Origin: Elusimicrobiota bacterium
Lineage (GTDB): Bacteria; Elusimicrobiota; Elusimicrobia; UBA1565
Assembly (NCBI GenBank): GCA_043819795.1
Contig: JBDREN010000090.1
Location: 1 to 58,513, forward strand
Reading direction: 5' to 3'
Length of the DNA: 58,513 nt
A model generated the notes under the pieces. That model was given only the letters and a program-made list of their open reading frames with translations. It ran no database searches and was not told the DNA's origin. Made by a program: the position numbers and the translations under genes. Positions 137 through 43,689 of this stretch are shown here, one piece after another (within the stretch, counting starts at the first letter, position 1; each line of letters opens with the position of its first letter).

Positions 137-874
137 TCAGCCATGCCGTTGCAGAGCGGACTTCAGCTCATCCAGCGCGAGTGGCCAGGATCTGTTTTGG
201 CCTCCTGGAAAGCCGGCGGGAATGTGAATCGGCACGCGATCCAAATGCGCGGAGTTCGCGACTTCTTTCAACTGCTCGGTCACGGCAGTATTTGCATCCT
301 TGCCGAACGAGATGCAGAGCCGCGGCCTAACGCCAACAATTTCTTCTCGAAGAACGCCAAACCAATATGCGTCGTCCTTGCCGCTTTCTGCCTTCCAGAC
401 GTCAGTGACGTACAAGGTCGAGAAGAATCTATTGCGCCCTTCCTCGCTAAACCAAAACCTCTGACCCTCTCCCCCACAAGCTTTGAGGATGAGGTCGAAA
501 AACTGCTTCATCGGTTCTTTCGCCGCCCAGGAGTGAAATATAGACCGGTGCCGTTCGAGGGCTTCGGCGACGGTCCGAGGCTCTCTGAACAGGAAGCCAC
601 GCTGCGTTTCAGCGAGCGCTGGAGACAGCAAGACCACCATGCACTTGACGCGAGTCGGTTCGTTGGCGCCATAGAGTGCCGGCAACAGATATGGCACACC
701 GTCAAAGGAGGGATAGTCTTTGTAGACTCGGTCCGCCAGCCTAAGGAAGTCGAACGGTTCTCTTGGCATGTCGAAATCCAATGCGTGAGTCCAAGTATAT
801 CCCGTCTCGTGTGGGTTTACCAGCGGTAGGTCGTATCCCCTTTCGTAGATAGCCCGCCGTCGCCAGATTGGCAA
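137..874 (-). CDS. Uracil-DNA glycosylase-like superfamily protein (divergent); start uncertain
   Basis: C-terminal motifs LYVTDVWK...LREEIVGVRPRLCISFGKDA...PIHIP resemble the UDG family 4/5 fold signature. The listed TTG start overlaps a hairpin, so the true start may be downstream. Confidence 0.5.
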   Translation of the reverse strand: MPIWRRRAIYERGYDLPLVNPHETGYTWTHALDFDMPREPFDFLRLADRVYKDYPSFDGVPYLLPALYGANEPTRVKCMVVLLSPALAETQRGFLFREPRTVAEALERHRSIFHSWAAKEPMKQFFDLILKACGGEGQRFWFSEEGRNRFFSTLYVTDVWKAESGKDDAYWFGVLREEIVGVRPRLCISFGKDANTAVTEQLKEVANSAHLDRVPIHIPAGFPGGQNRSWPLALDELKSALQRHG

Positions 875-893: not shown

Positions 894-1239
894 TGGTGCC
901 GCGGGGTAGAATCGAACTACCGACACCAGGTTTTTCAGCGCTTTGTTACCAGCCGGAAAACCACCCCGACCAGGGCCGGGCACGAGGCCCGGCCTCTTCA
1001 CATTACTGTGAAGGCCAGACTATATCTTCCGCTCGAAACGAAGTCCCAGCGAGCGGTCAGGCGTGTAGTCGTTACGGGTTCCCGGGAGGATTTGCGCCTT
1101 CCGGGTCTTCCCTCGGTATTGTCCTCCCCGGCCCAGGGCCGGGGGTGGGAGATCCACCGATATAGCCTGATTCAATCCCCGGGATCGCCCCCAGGGCGGG
1201 CCATTACTGACCTGTGCTCTACCACTGAGCTACCGCGGC
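894..1239 (-). tRNA. tRNA-Phe(GAA), intron-containing: exon 1 = 1239-1210, exon 2 = 938-894
   Basis: Joined exons give a 75-nt cloverleaf: GCCGCGG TA GCTC AGTGGTA GAGC A CAGGT|CTGAAAA ACCTG GTGTC GGTAG TTCGATT CTACC CCGCGGC A CCA, with all four stems paired and an encoded CCA. Confidence 0.95.
939..1209 (-). ncRNA. Group I self-splicing intron, 271 nt, no homing endonuclease ORF, between tRNA positions 31 and 32
   Basis: 5' exon ends in U and the intron ends in G. P1 CAGGU-CA-GUAA-UG-GCCCG with U-G wobble; P2 with GCGA loop; P3 UCAGGC/GCCUGA (1170-1165, 1062-1057); P4 UCGGU/ACCGA; R element CCCGUAACGACUAC (1078-1065); S element AAGAUAUAGUCU (1028-1017); P8 CCGCUCG/CGAGCGG; P9 UUCACA-GUAA-UGUGAA. 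Confidence 0.93.
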
Positions 1240-1389
1240 ACAATACATGGCAGAACGCCGTCATTTAACTATTTTCCCTCCCAGGACGCAAGGTCATGGG
1301 CGTACGGCAGCCGTGCGAGCCGACTTCAAGAGGATGGATGCGGGCTGATTGGTGGAGCGATGACCGTCAGTCCCCAGCTCCCAGCAGAC

Positions 1390-1746
1390 CTAGACGCCCC
1401 ATAGATCGGCCAAGAGTTTGATGTGATTCCGGCCGCGGGCCCTCCGCTTTGCGGCTTTCTTTCGTTTCGCCTGCGGGTTCTTGGGCGGCCTGCCAGGGAT
1501 TGGCCGGTCCAGCAGCCCGCGGAATCCCTTCTCCGCGAAGCGCTTGCGCCATAGCTTGACCGTGGTCCGGCTGATGCCGAGTACGCGCGCGATATGTGCG
1601 TTGGACTGTCCGTCTGCGGCCCGGAAGATGGCGTCCGCGCGCTTGGCGTCGCGCAGCTTGTAGGTCAGAGTCCCCTTTTGCATGCGGCCCAGAAGGAGCC
1701 TGTCGGGCATACCGATCCGGATGGGAATGGGCTTCGGTCCGGGCAT
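1390..1746 (-). CDS. Stand-alone helix-turn-helix protein resembling the IS630 transposase N-terminal domain
   Basis: RADAIFRAADGQSNAHIARVLGISRTTVKLWRKRFAEKGFRGLLDRPIPGRPPK matches the IS630-type HTH with GRP AT-hook; no DDE domain follows. Confidence 0.75.
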   Translation of the reverse strand: MPGPKPIPIRIGMPDRLLLGRMQKGTLTYKLRDAKRADAIFRAADGQSNAHIARVLGISRTTVKLWRKRFAEKGFRGLLDRPIPGRPPKNPQAKRKKAAKRRARGRNHIKLLADLWGV

Positions 1747-1908
1747 CAGGACCATTCTACATTTGACCCTCGATTTCGTCAAAATCTGGCCAGGGATTTA
1801 TTTTTTTCTCGACGGACTTGCGCGGTTATTGGTTTCCCACCCGATTAGAGAGTAGAGGGGCGCTTTCCCGAAACCGGGCATGGGGTGTCCGGCGCGGTGT
1901 CCGGTAGG

Positions 1909-2078
1909 CGCTCCAGCGAAGCTTCGAGCCTATCGCTGGAGCGGGCGATGGGAAATGTCGCGAACTGCGGGCCTTTTCGCCCGCCTCGATCCGAGCTGGC
2001 GCTCGGATCGCTTCCCGACCACGCCCCCACTACGAACCGTGGGTGGGGCCGTGGTCGGGAAGGCGGCGGGCGAAAAGG
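1909..2078. other. Highly structured non-coding segment (candidate origin or ncRNA)
   Basis: Perfect stems: 1909-1919/1933-1943 (11 bp); 1972-1985/2065-2078 (14 bp) enclosing 1987-1996/2001-2010 (10 bp) and 2011-2023/2050-2062 (13 bp). Confidence 0.6.
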
Positions 2079-2113
2079 AGGACTATCTTAGATTCAGGAC
2101 TGAGGAGGTGCGA

Positions 2114-2923
2114 TTGAACAGAGACAACAGGGGCGGCGCGCATGGGGAACCCACTGGACGCTTCAGGCTGCTTCAACTGACGGCAAGGGACTTGGCCGCG
2201 CTCTCGGCCCTTGAACTTTGGGGCGTGCTCGGCCTCGGTCAGCTTCAGGCCTGGGCCTACTGGCGCGGTGGTACGTTGGAGGAACGGGTCCGTCTTTTCT
2301 TCGAGGAGATCCGCCGCGACGACTACGAGCGCTACGGCTACAAGCGGCTCTTGCGGCTGGAGCGGGGCGGGTTCGTTCGGCCGCATATCTGTCCGGGATT
2401 CAAGAAACTCTACCTCCTCTCGGCCGGAGGGCATGAGGAGCTCAGGGCGCGGGCTCGGGCGCGTTTCCCGGAGCACCTGGCGGAGGTGAGCCCCTACAAG
2501 GTCCGGCACACGCTCGCCGTGGCCGGGGTCTGGATGTCGGCCCGGGCCTTCCGGAACGTCCGGCCGGTGGCCGAGCGGGAGCTGCGCTATCGCTGGGACA
2601 TGCGGCGGGAGAAGCCTCTGGGCGGCATCGTCCCTGACCTTCTATTCCAGGGGAAAGAGGGCATGCAGGCCATGGAGGTGGAGCTCTCGCCCAAGGCACA
2701 TCGCCGCTATTTGAGGCTTTGGCAGACCTACGGGCGGCGTTTGCCGCGGGGCGGGCAGGTCCTCTACCTGACCGGCTTCCCGGGCGGCTACGAGATGATC
2801 CTGCGGCTCGCCAGGAAGCACCAGGTGTGGTTCATCCGGGCCGCGACCATAAATGATTGGAAGCTCAGCCGGGGCTTCTGCGACTTCAACAACTACACGC
2901 TGCTGGAAGAGGACACCATGTAG
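2114..2923 (+). CDS. Replication-relaxation family protein (wHTH + PD-(D/E)XK nuclease-like domain)
   Basis: LTARDLAAL...RLLRLERGGFV...LYLLSAGG...HTLAV...PDLLF...MEVELSPK pattern. TTG start chosen from the GAGGAGGTG RBS at 2102-2110. Confidence 0.8.
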   Translation: MNRDNRGGAHGEPTGRFRLLQLTARDLAALSALELWGVLGLGQLQAWAYWRGGTLEERVRLFFEEIRRDDYERYGYKRLLRLERGGFVRPHICPGFKKLYLLSAGGHEELRARARARFPEHLAEVSPYKVRHTLAVAGVWMSARAFRNVRPVAERELRYRWDMRREKPLGGIVPDLLFQGKEGMQAMEVELSPKAHRRYLRLWQTYGRRLPRGGQVLYLTGFPGGYEMILRLARKHQVWFIRAATINDWKLSRGFCDFNNYTLLEEDTM

Positions 2924-2978
2924 CGGGACGCGGTCGGAGAGGCAGGCGGACTCGATCTCAGACCCAAGGAGGTGCCCA

Positions 2979-3311
2979 TTGGAGCAGGCAGAAAACCTCG
3001 AACCCAACGTGACCGGACACGTGCCGGCTCAGCTGGAAGCCTTGCGCATGACCCAGGGAGTCCTTGAACGGATGATCCGGGAGCTCGCGGAAAGGCTCAA
3101 CCGGCAGGGGACGGCGCCGGAGCTTCTTACGGCCGCGGAGGTGGCCGCGAAGCTCCGGCTCTCCCGGTGGCGGTTCTACCACATCTACCGGCAGATCGGC
3201 CTCCTACCCGTGCGCCGCTTCGGGCGCAGGCTTCTGTTCCGCCGGGAGGATGTCCGGCGGGTCGTGCAAAGCCGGCGAGCGCCCAGGGGCAGGCCGCCGC
3301 GAAGATTGTAG
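2979..3311 (+). CDS. Excisionase-like HTH_17 DNA-binding protein
   Basis: ELLTAAEVAAKLRLSRWRFY...GRRLLFRREDV motif; AAGGAGGTG RBS before TTG 2979. Confidence 0.8.
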   Translation: MEQAENLEPNVTGHVPAQLEALRMTQGVLERMIRELAERLNRQGTAPELLTAAEVAAKLRLSRWRFYHIYRQIGLLPVRRFGRRLLFRREDVRRVVQSRRAPRGRPPRRL

Positions 3312-3322
3312 CCATGCCGGCC

Positions 3323-3351
3323 TTGACAGAGAGCATAATGGACTATAAACT
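3323..3351 (+). promoter_or_regulatory. Sigma70-type promoter for the MNT-HEPN-integrase unit
   Basis: TTGACA-17 nt-TAAACT in a local AT-rich patch. Confidence 0.65.
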
Positions 3352-3382
3352 ATTATTGCCAACTGGTAATTATTCACTCCAT

Positions 3383-4015
3383 ATGCCTCCAAAGTTCCTG
3401 ACCGGGCTTCTGGGACAGCGCTCCAAGGTGGAGGCCTTGCGCTGCCTGTTCGCAGAGCAGGGCGAGCTGGCCGGCCGGGAGGTCGCGCGGCGCTGCGGCC
3501 TGAGCCATCCCATCATCCACAAGGCCCTGAGCGAGCTCGAGCGCGAGGGGGTCGTGCTCCGGAGGGTCGCTCCCCCGACGCATCTGTTCCGGCTCAATCG
3601 CAAGAACTGGCTCGTCTCAAGGCTGCTCGCGGGGCTCTTCGAGAGGGAGCTTCATTGGCAGGAGGATATGGAGGCCCTCATCCGGAAGGACGTCCCAGAG
3701 GCCGTGGTTTCTCTCGTCTTGTTCGGGAGCCTCATCCAGGGCAAGTTCAGCGCCAAGAGCGACGTCGACGTGCTGGTCTTGGTCAAAGACGCCAAGAGCG
3801 TCGAGCCCGCGGGTGAGCATTTCGCGGATGTCGGAGCGCGGGTTTACGAGACGTTCCACCATCCCCTGGCCCCTGTGATCCTGCCTATCCAGGAGTTCCG
3901 CAGGCGCTACCGGGAGGGGGTGAAGTTCGCCAAGGACATCTCTTATTCAGGCAAGGTGATCCACGGGAAACTGTTGACCGAGGTGCTGTTCGAGCATGGC
4001 GGCAAAAAAGACTGA
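3383..4015 (+). CDS. HTH + minimal nucleotidyltransferase (MNT) antitoxin
   Basis: N-terminal wHTH (GREVARRCGLSHPIIHKAL), then LFGS...SDVDVLV polymerase-beta motif; overlaps the HEPN gene. Confidence 0.85.
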   Translation: MPPKFLTGLLGQRSKVEALRCLFAEQGELAGREVARRCGLSHPIIHKALSELEREGVVLRRVAPPTHLFRLNRKNWLVSRLLAGLFERELHWQEDMEALIRKDVPEAVVSLVLFGSLIQGKFSAKSDVDVLVLVKDAKSVEPAGEHFADVGARVYETFHHPLAPVILPIQEFRRRYREGVKFAKDISYSGKVIHGKLLTEVLFEHGGKKD

Positions 4016-4406
4016 TATCAAGAAGGTCGCATCCGACCGGGCGGGCATCTATTGGGACAAGGCCGAGGACTTCTTCCGGACCATGAGGGACGCCTCGGCG
4101 GCCGGCAACTGGAACGGCGCCGGCTTGGCCGCGGTCCACTGCGCGATCTCGGCCGCGGACGCCGTTCTTGTAGCCAAGGCCGGGGTCCGTTCGAGCTCCA
4201 AGGATCATGAGGACGCGGCGGACCTCATCGCTTCCCATGTGCGCCATCCCCAGGCCAAGGAGCAGGCCCGGAGGCTCAGGCGCATCCTGCAGGAGAAGAA
4301 CCTGATCGAGTACGTGGACAAGTCGTACCGCCAGGACGACGCCCTGGAGCTCCAAAAGCACGTAGAGCGGTTCATGGCCTGGGTGCGGCCGCACCTGAAC
4401 CGCTAG
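3996..4406 (+). CDS. HEPN domain protein (partner of MNT)
   Basis: 136 aa all-helical: KAEDF...AVHCAISAADAVL...H...KNLIEY...DA; the Rx4-6H motif is degenerate. Confidence 0.8.
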   Translation: MAAKKTDIKKVASDRAGIYWDKAEDFFRTMRDASAAGNWNGAGLAAVHCAISAADAVLVAKAGVRSSSKDHEDAADLIASHVRHPQAKEQARRLRRILQEKNLIEYVDKSYRQDDALELQKHVERFMAWVRPHLNR

Positions 4407-4414
4407 GAGGGACC

Positions 4415-5524
4415 GTGGCAAAGAAGGTGGTCGGGGGAAAGTACGAGGTGGACTTCACCTACAAGGGCCAGCGGGTCCGGGGCTCGATCCCGGTGGAGAC
4501 CTTGGTCGTGCTCCTGCGTGGCCCGGAGGCCAAAGACGGCGCCGCCAACCTGGGGCCCCAGGGCGCGATTGCCTTCGACCGGTTCGTGGACGAGTATTAC
4601 CTCCCCCGCCGCGCCAAGCCCCACAAGAAGGAAACCGCCTACGCCAGCGACCGCTCGGCCTGCGACTGGCTCAAGCGGTTCTTCGGAGGCCGGCCGCTCC
4701 ACCTGGTGGGCCGGGTCCAGCGCGAGGAGTTCAAGCAGCAAAGGCTGTGCGGCATCCTTTCCCGGTTCGGCAAGCCGTGCGCGACCAACACGGTCAATCA
4801 TGACCTCTCCTGCCTCAATCAGGTCATGGAGTACGCCGTCGAGCTCGGCCACCTGAATGAGAACCCGCTGGCCGGCATGAAGCGGCTTCCCGTGACGCAT
4901 CGGGAGCGCTTCTGGCTCACGAAAGAGAAGCTAGGAAGGCTTCTTGAGGCCGCGAAGGGCTACGAGCAGGGCCGCTACCTGGACTTCGTGGAGTTTCTGG
5001 CCGCAAGCGGCGCTCGTCTCGGGGAGGCCCTGGACTTCCGCAAAGAGCACATCGACTGGAAGCGCAAGGAGATCCGGCTCAAGACCCTCAAGAAGCGCAA
5101 CCGCGCCAACGCGGAGCGGTTCCTGTCCTTCAAGGACATCGGCCCGAGCCTCGAGGGCGTGCTCCGGCGCATGAAGGCGCACCCCAGGACCGGCTACTTC
5201 TTCGCTTCAAGGCAAGGGAAGCCCTGGTGGCCGCGCAACGCCGGCCGCGCCTTCCGCCGAATCCGGAGCATCGCGGGCCTGGAGGAATTCCGTCTGCACG
5301 ATCTGAGGCATACCTTCGCCATGCACCGGGCCATGACGCGGATCACCTTCCGGCAGCTCCAGGTGGAGCTCGGCCACTCCTCGCCGCAATCGGTACAGGC
5401 CTACCTGGACCAGGCCGACCGCTTCGATCCCAGGCAGTCCATCTTTTTCAAGGAGCCGGCCAAGATGACCGCTGAGGAAACGCGGCGGCTCTTATTGAGT
5501 GTTTTGGGCAGAGGCGAGAGGTAA
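4415..5524 (+). CDS. Tyrosine recombinase/integrase
   Basis: Catalytic motifs GARLGE, HDLRH, LGH and QAY; GGAGG RBS before GTG. Confidence 0.93.
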   Translation: MAKKVVGGKYEVDFTYKGQRVRGSIPVETLVVLLRGPEAKDGAANLGPQGAIAFDRFVDEYYLPRRAKPHKKETAYASDRSACDWLKRFFGGRPLHLVGRVQREEFKQQRLCGILSRFGKPCATNTVNHDLSCLNQVMEYAVELGHLNENPLAGMKRLPVTHRERFWLTKEKLGRLLEAAKGYEQGRYLDFVEFLAASGARLGEALDFRKEHIDWKRKEIRLKTLKKRNRANAERFLSFKDIGPSLEGVLRRMKAHPRTGYFFASRQGKPWWPRNAGRAFRRIRSIAGLEEFRLHDLRHTFAMHRAMTRITFRQLQVELGHSSPQSVQAYLDQADRFDPRQSIFFKEPAKMTAEETRRLLLSVLGRGER

Positions 5525-5627
5525 GCCCTTTACCCGACTTGAGAAAGAGTACCTGCTCCGCATTCTAAAAAATAATCATAATATAAAGCATTTCCGTCTA
5601 TCCTGATAATTCCCACCAATATAGGCC

Positions 5628-5655
5628 TTGACTAATTATTAATTTATGCTATATT
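5628..5655 (+). promoter_or_regulatory. Promoter for the AbiE-like operon
   Basis: TTGACT-16 nt-TATATT with extended TGn in a very AT-rich intergenic region. Confidence 0.6.
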
Positions 5656-5672
5656 TATAACGAACGTTAATT

Positions 5673-6869
5673 ATGGCTGATAAAGTAGCCAAGATACTAT
5701 CCGAAATCAGCGAAGCCGACTTGCGTCGCAAATTGCCGAGTCTGCTGTCCTACTTCCTCCCAGACGCCAAGATTCAAAAAGTGGAAGCTGAGGTCACAGC
5801 GGGACCCGTTGTCGTGGATTTGAAAGCGACGGTCAAGGTCGGTAGAGTGAGGAAGGTTCTTTTGTTCGAGGTCAAGGGTAAGGGAGAGCCAAAGTACCTC
5901 CTGAACGCTATCGGGAGTCTGACTATTGCCGGAAGGCGCACCCCAGAGGCCTATCCCATTGTGTTTGTACCGAGCCTGTCAAAGGAGGGGCGCAGTCTGC
6001 TCCGAGAAGCCGGAATCGGCTACGTGAGCATGGAAGGTGAGGTCTATATCAAGTTCGATACCGTCTACGTCGACCGCCAGGGTGGACCCAGAAAGGCTCG
6101 TGAATTATTCCAGGCTGCACTTGAGGCACAGCTGACGGCGATGGGGCAGTCGCTGCAAGAGGCCCAGCGGCTGATTGAAAACGCTGGAGTCCGGCAGCGA
6201 CCCAGGAAGAAGCTCGGGTTCCCATATAGCCCCAAGGCGTCCCGAGTGATTAGGGCTATGTTGGAGCGGCCCAAGCAGAGTTGGACCATCTTAGGTCTGG
6301 CCAGAGAGGCGAATGTCGCGCTCCGTCTGGTGCTTCTCGTGGTCAATGCCTTGGATTCGAAGGGATATGTGAGGAAACAACGGGGAGACATCCGTTTGCT
6401 GAAGCGCAAGGACCTGCTGGGCTCCTGGGCGGAGCAATACGAGTTCCGGGAGGTCAACGACCTCTACTTCTGCTACTCTCTTGCGCGCGATTTTGATGAG
6501 TTCAAGCGGCGACTCACGAATTTGCCGCCGGGATTGGCCGATCAGTATGGGCTGACTATGTTCGCCGGCGCATCTTTGATCGCCCCGCAGCTCCGCTTTA
6601 ATGATTCGCACCTCTACGTGCGTGGACCCTTCGAGGAGTGGGCCTCCAAGCTGGATCTGCGGCCGGTGACCTCCGGTGCCAACGTCGTTCTAGCGGCGCC
6701 GTTCGATGACGGCGTCTTTGACTATGCCCAGATGATCGACGGCGTGCGCGTAGTCAGCAACACGCAGCTATTCTTGGACCTATACAACATCCATGACCGT
6801 GCACGGGATCAGGCGGAATTCCTTTATAGGGAAGTAATGGAACGTGGCAAGACCCAGAACGAAAGCTGA
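5673..6869 (+). CDS. AbiEi-like type IV TA antitoxin / transcriptional regulator with N-terminal PD-(D/E)XK-like domain
   Basis: VDL...FEVK N-terminus, central wHTH, C-terminal YGLTMFAGA...GANV...FDDGVF...VSNTQLFLDL...RARDQAEFL. Confidence 0.8.
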   Translation: MADKVAKILSEISEADLRRKLPSLLSYFLPDAKIQKVEAEVTAGPVVVDLKATVKVGRVRKVLLFEVKGKGEPKYLLNAIGSLTIAGRRTPEAYPIVFVPSLSKEGRSLLREAGIGYVSMEGEVYIKFDTVYVDRQGGPRKARELFQAALEAQLTAMGQSLQEAQRLIENAGVRQRPRKKLGFPYSPKASRVIRAMLERPKQSWTILGLAREANVALRLVLLVVNALDSKGYVRKQRGDIRLLKRKDLLGSWAEQYEFREVNDLYFCYSLARDFDEFKRRLTNLPPGLADQYGLTMFAGASLIAPQLRFNDSHLYVRGPFEEWASKLDLRPVTSGANVVLAAPFDDGVFDYAQMIDGVRVVSNTQLFLDLYNIHDRARDQAEFLYREVMERGKTQNES

Positions 6870-7725
6870 TTACGATTCTCAGACGACAGAAGCCTCCAAG
6901 TCGGTCCTCTTGGAGGTTATGCGGATTTTCGGGGAGTACAAAGACGCGCTCGTGCTGATCGGTGGCTGGACGCCGTATTTCCTGCTTGAACACAGCGCCT
7001 CTGGGGTCGACTCGGCGGAATCAGGATTCGGAGCGCGGCCATTCCGCCACGTTGGCTCTATAGACATCGACCTTGCAGTGAATCCTGACAGGATCACGGG
7101 CGAGGAATATTCCACGATTGTTCAGCTTTTGCGTGATCGCGACTATGACCCAGATCTGGAAATTCGGTTCCGGCTCAACCGCACTTTGCCCGGCATGGCG
7201 ACACCTATCGGCGTGGATTTTTTGACATCAAAGCCTCCCAAGGGTGACGGACGCGGGCGCAGGCACCGCAAAGTGCAGGCTGATTTGGATGCCCGGGCCA
7301 CGGAGCATCTTGAGATCGCCTTCGCACTGAATGAGCGCTATGCTCTCGAAGGAGAGTTGCCCGAAGGCGGGGGCTTAACCCGCACGGAGTTCAACCTGGC
7401 ATCCTTGCCGGCGATCTTCGCGCTAAAAGGCCTGGCCATGGGTTATTTCGGCAGGTACAAGGAGAAGGATGCCTACGACGTCTACGCGCTGGCGAGGTAC
7501 TACGGGCGCGGTATCGAAGATGTCGTTGCGGAACTCAAACCCCACCTTGGCCGTGAGGCGCTCAGGATCAGTCTTGGACACATACGCGAGTCGTTCAAGA
7601 GCATCGCCCATACCGGCCCAAAGCAGGTCGCAAAATTCATCGAGGCAACGCCGGAGGAGGAACAGGGCATCGTGCAGGATGCGTTCTTGTCTGTTGATTC
7701 GGTATTGCGGGGGTGCCGATTTTGA
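6844..7725 (+). CDS. AbiEii-like nucleotidyltransferase toxin
   Basis: LVLIGGW...GSIDIDL...LK...KEKDAYD motifs; overlaps the antitoxin gene. Confidence 0.78.
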   Translation: MARPRTKADYDSQTTEASKSVLLEVMRIFGEYKDALVLIGGWTPYFLLEHSASGVDSAESGFGARPFRHVGSIDIDLAVNPDRITGEEYSTIVQLLRDRDYDPDLEIRFRLNRTLPGMATPIGVDFLTSKPPKGDGRGRRHRKVQADLDARATEHLEIAFALNERYALEGELPEGGGLTRTEFNLASLPAIFALKGLAMGYFGRYKEKDAYDVYALARYYGRGIEDVVAELKPHLGREALRISLGHIRESFKSIAHTGPKQVAKFIEATPEEEQGIVQDAFLSVDSVLRGCRF

Positions 7726-7773
7726 GGCCCCGGTACGATGATGTATCTCTGCATCGCGGGGAGAGGTGACCAT

Positions 7774-8424
7774 ATGCTTGAGCAGATAGCAAAGCGATTT
7801 GATGAAACTGAGGCTGAGGGTGGGCAGTGGGCTAGGCGTCCGCGTCCCCGGAATGACTATTTTGTAGCTGATGAGGCGCAGGGATGGGTGACGTCGACGA
7901 CCAACCTTATCTTTACCGTCACTCGCGGACATGGGCCGTACATGGAGCAAGTCAGGCAGTTATTGAACACAGACCACATGAAGGTGGGCGTGCCCATGGA
8001 GACTTTGAATCGGCTGCGGGGAATCCTGTCAGCGGTGCGGACGGACTGGGAAAGCGGGCTGCTGAGCCGCATTGAATATTTGATTGCAGCGGAGGATTTC
8101 GATTCTTTTCTGGACCACGCCAAGAATTACCTCAAGGCGGGACATCATCGGGAGGCGGGCGTGCTCGCAAGCGCCGTATTCGAGGATGCCGTCCGCAAGC
8201 TTGCCAAGAAATACGAACTTGATCCGGACGCCAAGATCGACCGCATCATAGATGATTTGGCCAAGGTCGAGGCGGTCACGCCCCTGCAGGCAAGGAGGAT
8301 GAAGGCAGCGGGTGCGGCGGTGCGGAATAAAGCTCTTCACGCCAAGTGGGATGAGTTCGACAGGGATGATGTGGAGGCGGCGATTCGCGTAACTGAGCAG
8401 CTTCTGGAGGGCCCTCTGCAGTAG
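7774..8424 (+). CDS. HEPN (DUF4145-like) putative RNase
   Basis: AGVLASAVFEDAVRKL and an intact RNKALH (Rx4H) motif; GAGGTG RBS. Confidence 0.75.
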   Translation: MLEQIAKRFDETEAEGGQWARRPRPRNDYFVADEAQGWVTSTTNLIFTVTRGHGPYMEQVRQLLNTDHMKVGVPMETLNRLRGILSAVRTDWESGLLSRIEYLIAAEDFDSFLDHAKNYLKAGHHREAGVLASAVFEDAVRKLAKKYELDPDAKIDRIIDDLAKVEAVTPLQARRMKAAGAAVRNKALHAKWDEFDRDDVEAAIRVTEQLLEGPLQ

Positions 8425-8569
8425 ACCGGCCCCACGCCAATCGTGTCGAGATAAGTGTCGAGATATGGCCAAAAACGGGCCTATTTTGGCAAACTACGGC
8501 AAAGAGTGCTTGCTCGGATTTGCCGCTGGCGTAAGGATTTTCTAGGAACGGGCTGGATTTTCTGGAGCG

Positions 8570-8617
8570 CGACACCAGGTTTTTCAGACCAGTGCTCTAC
8601 CACTGAGCTACCGCGGC
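8570..8617 (-). pseudogene. Intron-less 5' fragment of tRNA-Phe (positions 1-49), att junction
   Basis: GCCGCGGTAGCTCAGTGGTAGAGCACTGGTCTGAAAAACCTGGTGTCG; lacks T-arm and 3' acceptor strand; differs from the full copy at position 28 (T vs A). Confidence 0.92.
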
Positions 8618-8627
8618 AACGGGGCTT

Positions 8628-8633
8628 ATTCTA
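8628..8633 (-). promoter_or_regulatory. -10 box of the presumed ancestral chromosomal tRNA-Phe promoter
   Basis: TAGAAT 10 nt upstream of the tRNA fragment's first base. Confidence 0.5.
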
Positions 8634-8766
8634 CAAAAACTTTTCCTCAATCCGAAGCGGAGACCGGACCCGCGGAGAGCGCCGGGATGCCCCTGGGCGC
8701 GCGCGTTTCCGACGGCGCCGGGGATGCGTATGGAACTCGCCGCGGGTTAGTACTATAATCTCCCGC

Positions 8767-23780: not shown

Positions 23781-25345
23781 TTGAGGATGTCCTCCCAGCG
23801 ATTGCGGCCGGCCCCTTTCTTCTTCGGTTGCTCCGGGGGAGGACACCCCTCTCCGATGCAGATCCCCCGCTTGCCGGAGCCGTATTCGTCCGGGATCCGC
23901 ACGCCGCCCTCCCCGCCGAGCGGGTTGCCCTGGAGCCCGGCCCCGCCGCCCCCTCCGGGCGCGGCCGCGGCTCCCCCTTCCATGCCGGCCCCTTGCAGGT
24001 TGCCGCCCCCTGAGTCGTCCCCGCCCCCGCCCCCGCCGGGCGTTCCGTAGGCGCCGTCCGGAGGGCCGTTGGAGATCTTCTCTCCGTAGAAGGTGGCCCG
24101 GGCGTTGTGGATGCGCCGTTCCGTCCCGCAGGTCGTGCAGTATAGCGCCTCATCCGAGGACCGCTTGGTCTCCAGGAGCTGGAAGAGGGCCACATTGCTC
24201 CTCATCATCAAGCCCTCGAGCGGGTGGCGGACCGTCTCCTCTCCGGCCGTCATCTCGCGCAGCCGGAAATCCCCGTCCTTGGCGTGGTCCTTGATCTCCT
24301 GGAGCAGGGTGGCGTCCAGCATGGCCATGACCATCTCGTTGCCGTGGACGCCGTCGGGCACCCTCTGGTAGTTTCCCATGGCCTGGGGACGCATGAAATC
24401 CTCGGGCGCGTCCACGGGATTGGATATGGACGCGTAGTTTTCGAGGAGCTCTCCGGCCCGGCCGAGGTAGACGCCGGAGGCGGTCGGCTGGAGCTCGCCC
24501 CGCTTCCCCGTCTTGTGGCGGTACGGCCCGAGGCGGTCGTCCTTCTCCTTGAGGATGATCGTCCGTCCCATGCTCCCCGGAGCGGTGCGGCCGTCCGCGT
24601 AGGAATCCAGGCCAAGGACGAAGTTTTCCCGGTGCGTCTGGCGCAGTTCGTCGGGCGTCAGGATGCCGGCGACCGGGCTTCCACGGAGCGAGGGCGTCTC
24701 CCACTTGTCCGGCGGGAGCTTCTCCTCGCCGGAGACCGCGGACTCCACGGCCTGGTCGATCACCACCTGCCCGCCGGTTCCGGTCAGGAAGCCCAGCCCC
24801 TCCGAGCGCTGCTCCCAGAGCCGGAACTCCCCCTTGCGCTCGGGGCGCAGGATGTACGAGATCGGCAGCCATTGCGAGATGTTGTAGCGGCGGACCAGCT
24901 TGACCATGTCCGCCACGAAGATGGAGAGCGCGAGCAGCAGAATCCCGGCGGAAAGGAAGGGGCGGTTGCGCGCCATGTCGAACAGGCGGGTCATCTGGTT
25001 GCGCGGGTCCAGGTCGCGCTTCGCCTGGTCGGGAGTGCGGGTGAAGTGCTTCATGTTCCACTGCGGGAGGTTTCCCGGCCCCGGCGACGGGGCCGGCTGC
25101 TTCCGGGGCTTCCCGGGGGAGACTTTCGCTTCCCCGAAGGCGGAGCGCAATCTTTGGCGCGCCTCGGACGCGTTCGGAGGAGCGCCGGCCGCCTCGCCGG
25201 CCTGAGGGGGCGTCGGTCCCGGAGCCGCCTGCTGGTCGCCTTGGGGGGCGGACGGGTCCGCCCGGCGCTTGGAACGTCGGTCCACGGGGGAGCACGGCGG
25301 CTGGAAATACTCCTCGCTGTTCTTCTCTGGAGTGTCGTCGGCCAC
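23777..25345 (-). CDS. Single-pass membrane hypothetical protein (Pro-rich N-terminus, CTTC motif, Gly-rich C-terminus)
   Basis: Long ORF with one TM (FLSAGILLLALSIFVA), coupled to the Tad gene; GTG start lies 7 nt after TATATT. Confidence 0.65.
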   Translation of the reverse strand: MADDTPEKNSEEYFQPPCSPVDRRSKRRADPSAPQGDQQAAPGPTPPQAGEAAGAPPNASEARQRLRSAFGEAKVSPGKPRKQPAPSPGPGNLPQWNMKHFTRTPDQAKRDLDPRNQMTRLFDMARNRPFLSAGILLLALSIFVADMVKLVRRYNISQWLPISYILRPERKGEFRLWEQRSEGLGFLTGTGGQVVIDQAVESAVSGEEKLPPDKWETPSLRGSPVAGILTPDELRQTHRENFVLGLDSYADGRTAPGSMGRTIILKEKDDRLGPYRHKTGKRGELQPTASGVYLGRAGELLENYASISNPVDAPEDFMRPQAMGNYQRVPDGVHGNEMVMAMLDATLLQEIKDHAKDGDFRLREMTAGEETVRHPLEGLMMRSNVALFQLLETKRSSDEALYCTTCGTERRIHNARATFYGEKISNGPPDGAYGTPGGGGGGDDSGGGNLQGAGMEGGAAAAPGGGGGAGLQGNPLGGEGGVRIPDEYGSGKRGICIGEGCPPPEQPKKKGAGRNRWEDILK

Positions 25346-42291: not shown

Positions 42292-43689
42292 ATGGCAGGC
42301 ATAGGGTTCCGGCTCCAGAAGATCCTCGAGGAGGACACCTACACCAGCAGCCTTCGGGCCTACGCCTACTCGGCTTTGATCGCGGCCGGGCCTTTCCTGA
42401 TGACGATCCTCGTGGTATCCCTCATCCACCTGGTGTCGATCGAGAACCTGACGCTGAGCCAGATGTGGTACCTGAAGGGCCTGATCACCTACGGCTTCGC
42501 GCTCTCGCTTCTCACCGTCGGGGGCAGCTACCTCGTCGTCACCCGCTACGTCGCGGACGAGTACTACCGCGGGCATGTGGGCAGCTTCGCGGCCGTCTTC
42601 TTCTCGACGGTGTTCCTCAACGCCCTCCTCTGGGGTCCTTTCGTGCTCTGGTTCTTCTCGCGCCTGTCGGCGTCGCCGATGGTCCGGCTCTACGCGCTGC
42701 TGCTCTACCTCGTGGCCGCGGCGATATGGCTCGCGCTCGTCTTCCTGTCTGCCGCGCGCGACTACATGAGGATCTCCCGGGTATTCCTGATCGGCGCCGC
42801 GTTCAGCTTCACGGCGGCGTATCTGTGGGGAAGCGTCCGGGGCCTGGAGGGATACCTCGGCGGCTTCGTCTGCGGGCAGGGCGTCATCCTCGTGTTGCTG
42901 GCCAACGCGATCCTCGATGAGTTCGGCTACAGCGAGCCGCGCGACTACTACTGGCTCGGCCACTTCAAGAAGTAGCCGTATCTGATCGGGATCGGCTTCT
43001 TCTACAACCTCGGCATCTGGGTCGACAAGTTCCTGTTCTGGGCCTCCCCGGCCGGCGAGAGCATCGATGTGGGGTTCCGGCACTGCCCGGTCTACGACGC
43101 CCCGATGTTCTTCGCCTACCTGACGATCCTGCCCTCGCTCGCCTACTTCCTGATCCGGATGGAGACCGACTTCTTCCAGAAGTACCACGCCTACTACCAG
43201 GCCATCCAGCATCAGGAGACCCTGGACCGGCTGGAGAGGCGCCGCCAGGACATCCTCCGCTCGCTGGCGGACAACCTGAAACGGCTCGTCGTCATCCAGG
43301 GCATCGTCAGCGGCTTGGCGCTTCTGGCCGTGCCGTGGCTCGTCGAGGCGGCGGGCATGGACCCGCTCCAGATGGGCATACTGCGGATCGGGATATTCGC
43401 TTCGTTCCTGCAGGCCGGGTTCCTGATCGCCTTGAACCTCCTGCTTTACTTCGACTTCCAGAAAGAGGCCCTGATGACGACCGCGACGTTCTGCGCGGGC
43501 AACGCCCTGCTGACCGCGCTCAGCCTCCGCTTCGGCCTGCCGGCCTTCGGCTACGGCTATTCGCTCGCGTGCTTCCTGGCTCTGGTCCTGGCGCTTGCCC
43601 TGCTCAACGAGCGGCTCCGGTTGCTCCACTTCTGGACGTTCATGCGCCAGCCCATACCCACACCGGTCGTCGTCCCCGAAGAGGCCTGA
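42292..43689 (+). pseudogene. pelG: Pel transporter PelG interrupted by an in-frame TAG at 42973-42975
   Basis: MAGIGFRLQK N-terminus; the frame continues past the stop as PYLIGIGFFYNLGIWVDKF...YDAPMF...METDF...LLYFD; 465 codons in total. Confidence 0.9.

Follow-up and report, generated by a model that had tools for sequence, protein, structure and literature searches.

Introduction

Mobile elements that target transfer RNA (tRNA) genes classically carry the 3' part of the gene in their own attachment site, attP, and rebuild the gene upon integration. The classification made by Williams in 2002 is said to cover tRNA-targeting islands and prophages whose crossover lies in the anticodon loop. 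We analyzed a 58.5-kb contig of an Elusimicrobiota bacterium (hereafter, the window), in which an integrase island lies between a complete tRNA-Phe gene, split by a group I intron, and an intron-less 5' fragment of a second copy. The elements to which we relate this island resemble the classical ones in that the crossover takes place in the anticodon loop (7 nt), between the two stem arms, in that both arms of the attachment site contain arm-type repeats, and in that the excisionase (Xis) and integrase (Int) genes are neighbors. Unlike the classical islands, those that bear the intron do not rebuild the tRNA gene.

The closest described system is the tRNA-dependent lysogeny of actinobacteriophages, for which the part of the article considered here reports a short core, a target tRNA gene that is not rebuilt, and the requirement for a phage tRNA of the same isotype (Guerrero-Bustamante and Hatfull, mBio 2024, PMC10865867). 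The likeness lies in a tyrosine integrase that recombines a short (~10 bp) core overlapping a host tRNA gene. The elements described there are phages, whereas those described here are Elusimicrobiota islands or conjugative-type elements, target tRNA-Phe, and are known from sequence alone. In addition, the replacement gene lies here ~190 nt from the core, in the P arm of the attachment site, and a group I intron is located within its core. In the same part of that article, the only mention of the word "intron" is in the title of a reference that it cites.

Two other bodies of work touch on this locus. According to an excerpt of PMC6563490 (citing Zhao and Williams 2002, J Bacteriol 184:859), some elements recombine with the 5' part of a tRNA gene, but such cases are rare. 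As in the elements outlined there, a displaced 5' fragment and the host promoter occupy one end here, and the working gene stands behind element DNA at the other; one relative, G058, fits this type exactly, with a 173-bp repeat made of the promoter and tRNA nt 1–38. The difference is that the working gene is separate and complete in eight integrated relatives, and most likely in the window, and is not a rebuilt hybrid. Group I introns have been cataloged at eight anticodon-loop positions (Williams 2020, bioRxiv 10.1101/2020.01.27.920355, in part). The window intron is, like these, compact, devoid of an open reading frame (ORF), and located in the anticodon-loop region of a bacterial tRNA, with a U at −1 and a G at omega. 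In that scheme, its site (between nt 31 and 32) corresponds to position 0. In the part of the preprint considered here, the introns are not linked to integrase sites.

Literature searches on introns together with tRNA genes and integration sites, or on tRNA disruption or replacement, found nothing relevant, and a search on group I introns and tRNA in Elusimicrobia found nothing. tRNA-dependent integration itself is known; the Elusimicrobiota islands with an intron-split replacement gene represent a new form of it, in which islands and conjugative-type elements from an uncultured phylum join the actinophages.

An Integrase Island between Two Copies of tRNA-Phe

The complete tRNA-Phe(GAA) gene lies on the minus strand (1239–894), and a group I intron of 270 nt separates its nt 31 from its nt 32. 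Along this strand, exon 1 (1239–1209; 31 nt, tRNA nt 1–31) is followed by the intron (1208–939) and by exon 2 (938–894), which comprises nt 32–76 with an encoded CCA and opens with the anticodon loop CTGAAAA, as delimited from the sequence and from the alignment to 15 homologous split genes. The second copy (8617–8570, minus strand) corresponds to tRNA nt 1–48 without an intron and diverges in sequence after nt 48. The two copies share an exact 18-mer (921–938 and 8570–8587) and an exact 26-mer of exon 1 (1214–1239 and 8592–8617), each found only at these two places in the window, and matches to these blocks arose in none of 100 shuffled sequences. A repeat search of the window returned a 37-nt pair with 92% identity. 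Exon 1 differs from the fragment at a single site, tRNA position 28, where the complete gene has A and the fragment has T. The original prediction, made from the window's letters, had pointed to two repeat blocks, of 27 bp in exon 1 and of 18 bp, and to the coincidence of the 3' splice site with the edge of the 18-bp block (GCG|CUGAAAA), which is as it described.

It had also proposed a reversed geometry, with a dead 5' fragment behind the host promoter, the working gene at the far end behind element-type DNA, and an integrase island in between. This arrangement is now supported from both ends. Relative G002 has the 20 nt that precede the fragment (aaaagtttttgtagaataag) in front of its own intron-less tRNA-Phe; the fragment therefore retains the ancestral promoter region (8618–8660, minus strand). 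At the other end, the element-type promoter and leader of the split gene (1240–1290, minus strand; ttaaat ... cgttctgccatgt) are conserved upstream of the split genes of relatives, and this upstream DNA resembles that of split tRNA-Phe genes in a different family within the order (cgttct[a/g]cca[a/t]gt). The island between the two copies encodes a 369-aa tyrosine integrase (PF00589), a Xis-like protein, and defense or toxin–antitoxin proteins.

ARAGORN made no tRNA call in the window, and the fragment scored 28.2 bits against the Rfam tRNA model (cut-off 29). In the corresponding assembly (241 contigs, 90% complete), ARAGORN called 40 tRNAs, none of them tRNA-Phe, and BLAST found no third copy of the gene. 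Split genes of this kind are overlooked by standard tRNA finders, so that such genomes seem to be without tRNA-Phe.

The comparison with relatives, together with the repeats and the Rfam match, identifies the second copy (8570–8617) as a dead 5' fragment of the host tRNA-Phe. It is identical to the tRNA-Phe of G002 and G003 across nt 1–41. Its T28 is of host type, and from the core onwards it is element-derived, as indicated by T42. The complete gene differs from the G002 and G003 tRNA at A28, T42, and T60. T42 is present in both copies of the 18-bp block, whereas G002, G003, and G011 have A42; in the nearest host-type tRNA-Phe genes, A42 pairs with T28. The right-hand chromosomal neighbors of the island are rfbA and rfbC. 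In relative G003, ~3.9 kb separate the rfbA orthologue from an intact intron-less tRNA-Phe, and this interval contains ordinary genes but no integrase.

Related Elements Disrupt tRNA-Phe and Carry a Replacement

Five other genomes of the order, one of them a single-contig assembly, contain related elements. These cut tRNA-Phe at the anticodon-loop core GTCTGAAAA (tRNA nt 30–38, 9 bp) and do not restore it; the complete tRNA-Phe that they bring, with the same intron, lies ~190 nt away from this core. In G070, a single contig of 3.8 Mb, the host 5' side consists of the native promoter, tRNA-Phe nt 1–38, and a P' arm with two ATCTCGACA repeats. The interior, ~70 kb, encodes an integrase 60% identical to that of the window, TraG/TraD-type (TraG-D_C) and TraC/VirB4-type P-loop proteins, Wadjet JetC/JetD, a type III restriction system, and transposases. 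At the far end, an element-type promoter precedes a complete tRNA-Phe, whose intron and insertion site are those of the window gene, then ~190 nt with two more ATCTCGACA repeats. This P arm is followed by CCAG-TCTGAAAA, by tRNA-Phe nt 39–76, and by a cupin-like host gene. The same succession of intron gene, P arm, core, and host 3' half was found in 8/8 readable integrated loci (G053, G070, G074, G064, G082, L071, L088, and L090); a ninth, L086, is truncated by the contig end and was left out of this count. In contig L074, the complete split gene, P arm, and core run into the P' arm, which corresponds to an attP junction from a circle or a tandem copy. Arm repeats are present in all ten P arms read (eight in integrated loci, one in the attP contig L074, and one in the truncated L086).

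These relatives thus show a 9-bp core and two junctions, attL and attR, each with half a gene, and their complete split tRNA-Phe genes lie inside the elements. In G070, G053, and G064, the host 5' half pairs with the host 3' half. The acceptor stem distinguishes these halves from the element's own gene in G053 and G064. Two genomes of the same genus as G070 (G041 and G056) have an intact intron-less tRNA-Phe by the same downstream gene and represent empty sites. Apart from the split gene, no complete tRNA-Phe was found in G070, G053, G064, G101, or the window's assembly, of which only G070 is not an incomplete bin. ARAGORN detected an intact intron-less tRNA-Phe at 11 of the 12 relatives' loci scanned, the twelfth being the split gene of G053. 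Judging from these junctions, the intron-bearing elements wreck the host gene at GTCTGAAAA and supply a replacement.

These loci bear on several points of the original prediction. Its view of the intron as mobile-element cargo without an endonuclease gene agrees with the element-borne intron of all eight readable integrated relatives. Its proposal that the element provides only exon 1 and the intron, the host providing the 3' half, is not supported: a complete gene is carried by the eight relatives and by the L074 attP, and T42 is found in both copies of the window. As for attachment sites, the relatives provide both an attP with the complete intron gene (L074) and intron-less empty sites (G041 and G056); for the window itself, the public run gave no such joint.

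Not all integrases of this clade act in this way. The 3.2-kb mini-element of G058 (L119, G058:C71:59800-63720) encodes an integrase 59% identical to that of the window, with the catalytic tyrosine replaced by cysteine. Its 173-bp direct repeat restores an intron-less tRNA-Phe, which makes it a true case of reversed orientation. The closest integrase relatives lie at tRNA-Tyr (loop TCTGTAAA), beside the same pair of ATCTCGACA repeats (L120, G007:C22 ~23900-24300; L121, G068:C24 ~42900-43300). The G007 integrase, 66% identical and with an internal TAG stop, adjoins a tRNA-Tyr 5' fragment. The G068 integrase (54%) lies with a complete tRNA-Tyr beside the P' arm, and this element appears to rebuild its target classically. 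An Rfam search detected no intron in either of the 18-kb stretches around these two integrases. When the integrase alone was used to search genome contigs for related loci, 35 pattern matches were obtained, none of which was confirmed.

Two features of the collection deserve mention. G053 contains two P' arms, ~90% alike, each by a tRNA-Phe 5' fragment (L033 in G053:C164, and L049 at the end of G053:C71), one being cut by the contig end inside the core; they represent either two related elements or an assembly break at a repeat. L071 and L074 are Elusimicrobiota-type split tRNA-Phe genes in contigs binned as Armatimonadota and Bryobacteraceae, L074 sharing its record series with G053. This placement probably reflects mis-binned mobile DNA; alternatively, it might correspond to a real transfer.

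The Group I Intron

The intron (939–1208, minus strand) has no ORF, and hence no endonuclease gene, and would be named "Phe.0Ug" according to Williams 2020. The Rfam model Intron_gpI (RF00028) matches 1219–996 over its full length with 46.8 bits (E 1.7e-9), slightly below the gathering score of 50. The splice sites read GGU|CAGU...GCG|CUGAAAA, with a U at −1 and a G at the intron end, and the intron directly precedes the first base of the anticodon loop. The core is conserved among 16 homologues, and in their consensus fold compensatory changes affect 37 of the 93 predicted pairs. The U31.G wobble at the 5' splice site is present in 16/16 homologues, as is the terminal G in 16/16 introns. The conserved core and the compensatory pairs argue for a working ribozyme.

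By BLAST, the intron was detected in five of 100 other genomes of the order, all five belonging to family f2, and in none of the 16 genomes of the window's own family. The one viral contig with the intron core pattern was rejected, as it contains an unrelated intron whose host gene, judged by eye, looks protein-coding and not like a tRNA. A metagenome locus (L096) was also set aside, the tRNA-Phe landmarks (D-arm and CTGAAAA) having been sought there and none found.

Ends and Flanks of the Window Island

The right end of the island is clear. Next to the tRNA fragment, the P' arm of the attachment site (8430–8569, minus strand) contains two direct ATCTCGACA repeats (8444–8452 and 8456–8464) and the block tttgccgtagtttgcc; the repeat pair and the block are both conserved beside the 5' fragments of relatives. 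The ancestral promoter (8618–8660) is now an orphan directed into the island, antisense to the plus-strand genes, and might drive an antisense transcript.

The left end, attR, is absent from the contig, and only an attL-like junction is visible in the window. The 896 nt left of the split gene have a G+C content of 56.6%, compared with 66.8% for the genome and 66.5% for the window right of the island. No ATCTCGACA repeat pair was found left of the split gene. An arm-type site with one mismatch (769–777) was dismissed, since 13 such sites were found and 10.9 are expected by chance. The 60-nt trailer of the split gene was compared with nine type-A, six type-C, and ten host trailers, and nothing scored above shuffled sequences (best p 0.065); a likeness of the trailer to P arms that appeared in a multiple alignment is not real. 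By synteny, the genes downstream of the G002 and G003 tRNA-Phe map to contig C41 of the window's genome. The end of C41 is without a tRNA piece, and the 2–3 kb adjoining the tRNA are not conserved, which leaves the host 3' flank unplaced. Island finders that assume a rebuilt 3' end will misplace the borders of such elements.

One public sequencing run (8% of words) yielded short contigs of low depth, which match pieces of the island without any difference; no excision, circle, or empty-site joint was found among them. No RNA run was found to contain the locus. A joint from 938 to 1215 with five other letters in between was not used, its shorter side of 25 letters being below the 30-letter limit under which other organisms may be the source.

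Probable Origin of the Split Gene and Proposed Role of the Intron

We consider it probable that the window island belongs to this family of anticodon-loop tRNA-Phe inserters that do not rebuild their target, that the complete tRNA-Phe is the island's own replacement and not a hybrid, and that its intron, as predicted, blocks the integrase. The architecture of the family is well supported by the related loci, in which integration leaves the host 5' half and its promoter beside the P' arm at one end. At the other end, the element's complete intron gene precedes a P arm of ~190 nt that contains two ATCTCGACA repeats, and the core and host 3' half come after this arm. For the left end of the window and the role of the intron, we infer the following. 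The intron would self-splice, so that the cell would live on the island's tRNA-Phe. Located inside the 9-bp core (GT|CTGAAAA), it would shift the left integrase half-site 270 bp away, and the replacement gene would therefore be unable to act as a second attB (the host site) beside attP. In the window, the attR side, that is, the P arm and host 3' half, would be deleted or lie past the contig start; if deleted, the island would now be fixed. Four points speak for a gene wholly borne by the island: the A28, T42, and T60 differences, the presence of T42 in both repeats, the lack of arm repeats on the left, and the low G+C of the left flank. T42 in both copies, the three differences, and the left flank also argue, indirectly, against a 5'-restoring insertion of the reversed-orientation type seen in G058.

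Several observations weigh against this interpretation, and some of them lend themselves to other explanations of the complete gene. No P arm, core, or host 3' half was found in the 896 nt to the contig start or elsewhere in the assembly, and the attR side is therefore proposed and not seen. The acceptor strand of the window's exon 1 is of host type (GCCGCGG), unlike that of the 15 other split genes. The attP of G058, containing the promoter and nt 1–38, makes a hybrid design possible in this clade, since it shows that an element with such an integrase can bring the 5' part of its target and restore the gene. In such a hybrid, attP would consist of the promoter, exon 1, the intron, CTGAAAA, ACCTGGTGTCG, and the P' arm; a crossover in the loop would link exon 1 and the intron of the element with the host 3' half, and the island would still be excisable. 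The repeat geometry agrees with this, the 18 bp common to both copies would be one and the same DNA in attP, and a separate host 3' fragment is missing from the assembly. We nevertheless judge the hybrid unlikely, though it deserves serious attention. If the host had A42, as in G002, G003, and G011, one crossover in the loop would put T42 in the fragment only, and a hybrid would have A42 in the complete gene; the T42 observed would require an extra compensating change. T60 would be a second change in a functional host half, compared with none in the 41 nt of the dead fragment. Moreover, the left side lacks the arm-type repeats seen in all ten P arms of relatives, its G+C looks foreign, and none of the 15 homologous split genes has this form of attP. 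It is very improbable that the host gene already bore the intron and that the element brought an intron-less 5' piece through a crossover in the 27-bp block. That scenario would account for the intron-less fragment, and split tRNA-Phe genes do occur behind host-type promoters elsewhere (L091 and L093). However, it is the fragment, and not the split gene, that stands behind the conserved host promoter beside the rfbA flank, and the DNA upstream of the split gene matches element-borne genes of another family. The intron was absent from the BLAST results for the window's family, and ARAGORN identified an intact intron-less tRNA-Phe in nine scanned genomes of that family. A mis-assembly of the metagenome bin that created the repeats or the join is hardly credible. 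The genome is indeed a 241-contig bin, and contigs of relatives break at these repeats, but the same geometry is found on one contig in G070 as well as in G101 and L095. In addition, position 28 and the flanking DNA distinguish the two copies, and the short contigs of the public run match the island perfectly.

With regard to the intron of these island-borne genes, we tentatively propose that it is a self-immunity device: it would split the 9-bp core so that the element can carry a working copy beside attP, and decayed elements would leave the split gene as the sole tRNA-Phe, spreading endonuclease-free introns. In its spliced form, the gene would be identical to the host attB throughout the core and the two stem arms, and the attP core would be only ~190 bp away. 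Since an intron-free gene would be a host attB near attP, the intron is predicted to prevent recombination between attP and the element's own gene, a shielding role derived from logic and not from data. The competing possibility, that the intron is a neutral passenger inherited with a captured tRNA gene and devoid of any protective role, is a somewhat doubtful one. It finds support in observations that also weigh against the shielding interpretation: split genes have no element within ~1 kb in L085, L087, L094, and L097, others are located behind host-type promoters, and the phages with tRNA-dependent lysogeny, which follow the same logic, are described as working without introns in the part of PMC10865867 considered here. 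A passenger is, however, difficult to reconcile with the presence of the intron in 10/10 element-borne replacement genes (the eight loci, L074, and L086), always between nt 31 and 32 inside the core, and with the identity of the spliced form to attB so close to attP. Likewise, G058, which rebuilds the host gene without a replacement copy, has no intron. A protective role would give the ORF-less intron of a bacterial tRNA a testable job, the guarding of a gene against a site-specific recombinase.

Two loci, one in G101 and one in the metagenome contig L095, have a host-type promoter and a dead 5' fragment and, only ~225–270 nt further on, a complete split gene with its own promoter. A search of G101 at E 1e-15 detected no integrase homologue. 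Both loci resemble insertions that have decayed, the intron gene remaining as the working copy of tRNA-Phe. As they keep only the dead fragment and the intron gene, the elements would therefore spread the intron by replacement of the whole gene, a route into new genomes that does not require a homing endonuclease. The original prediction that loss of the element leaves the intron behind is thus retained in that the intron gene can remain, as in these two loci; the homing through the 27-bp block that it had envisaged is better replaced by whole-gene replacement.

Two further loci show peculiar junctions. In G101 (L082, G101:C62:7900-7945), the 11–12 nt directly after the core of the dead fragment (caacaacggcc) resemble the first bases of the neighboring intron. 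In the metagenome locus L093 (tRNA forward, ~1040–2420), a split tRNA-Phe with a host-type promoter ends precisely with the intron, exon 2 being lost from the 3' splice site on. Next come TTTTCAG and, on the other strand, a tyrosine integrase 24% identical to that of the window; this may be a different element inserted in an intron-bearing gene.

Gene Content of the Island

The tyrosine integrase (4415–5524, plus strand; 369 aa, full length) matches PF00589 (E 2.9e-24) and phrog_1 (E 2.9e-46), and the alignment shows conservation of the catalytic residues R201, H295, R298, H321, and Y330 of tyrosine recombinases. An excisionase-like HTH_17 protein, with a helix-turn-helix (HTH) domain, is encoded at 2853–3311 (plus strand; phrog_66, E 7.5e-9); a Xis-like gene in front of the integrase is an arrangement common to the window and six relatives. 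Between these lies a pair of genes for an MNT-type nucleotidyltransferase and a HEPN protein, of toxin–antitoxin type (3167–4406, plus strand). Closer to the split gene, domain searches identified a small HTH protein (1390–1782, minus strand; HTH_23/HTH_28) that resembles the N-terminus of IS630 transposases, and a 347-aa protein (1880–2923, plus strand) with a weak match to Replic_Relax (E 3e-4, under the cut-off), a homologue of which, 35% identical, is encoded inside the ~70-kb G070 element. Among the functions expected for conjugation (coupling protein, VirB4/TraC ATPase, and relaxase), this weak match is the only trace in the window island.

Left of the split gene, the CCA is followed by a hairpin and then by a gene of the uracil-DNA-glycosylase-like superfamily (137–772, minus strand; 211 aa) in low-G+C DNA. 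The protein has no match in Pfam, NCBIfam, or PHROG; the clusters closest to it in the ESM Atlas are uracil-DNA-glycosylase-like (feature score 0.95, structure TM 0.73), and a homologue was found in 1 of 40 relatives. The gene probably belongs to the island or to other foreign DNA.

On the right-hand side, domain searches identified an AbiEi/AbiEii pair (5673–7725, plus strand), an abortive-infection or type IV toxin–antitoxin system forming a low-G+C module, and a 228-aa protein of unknown function (7738–8424, plus strand) with a weak match to DUF7008 alone. The AbiE module is separated from the integrase by an A+T-rich stretch of ~150 nt (5525–5672). The G+C content falls to 48% in the 5501–6000 interval, which suggests that the right-hand module was acquired separately.

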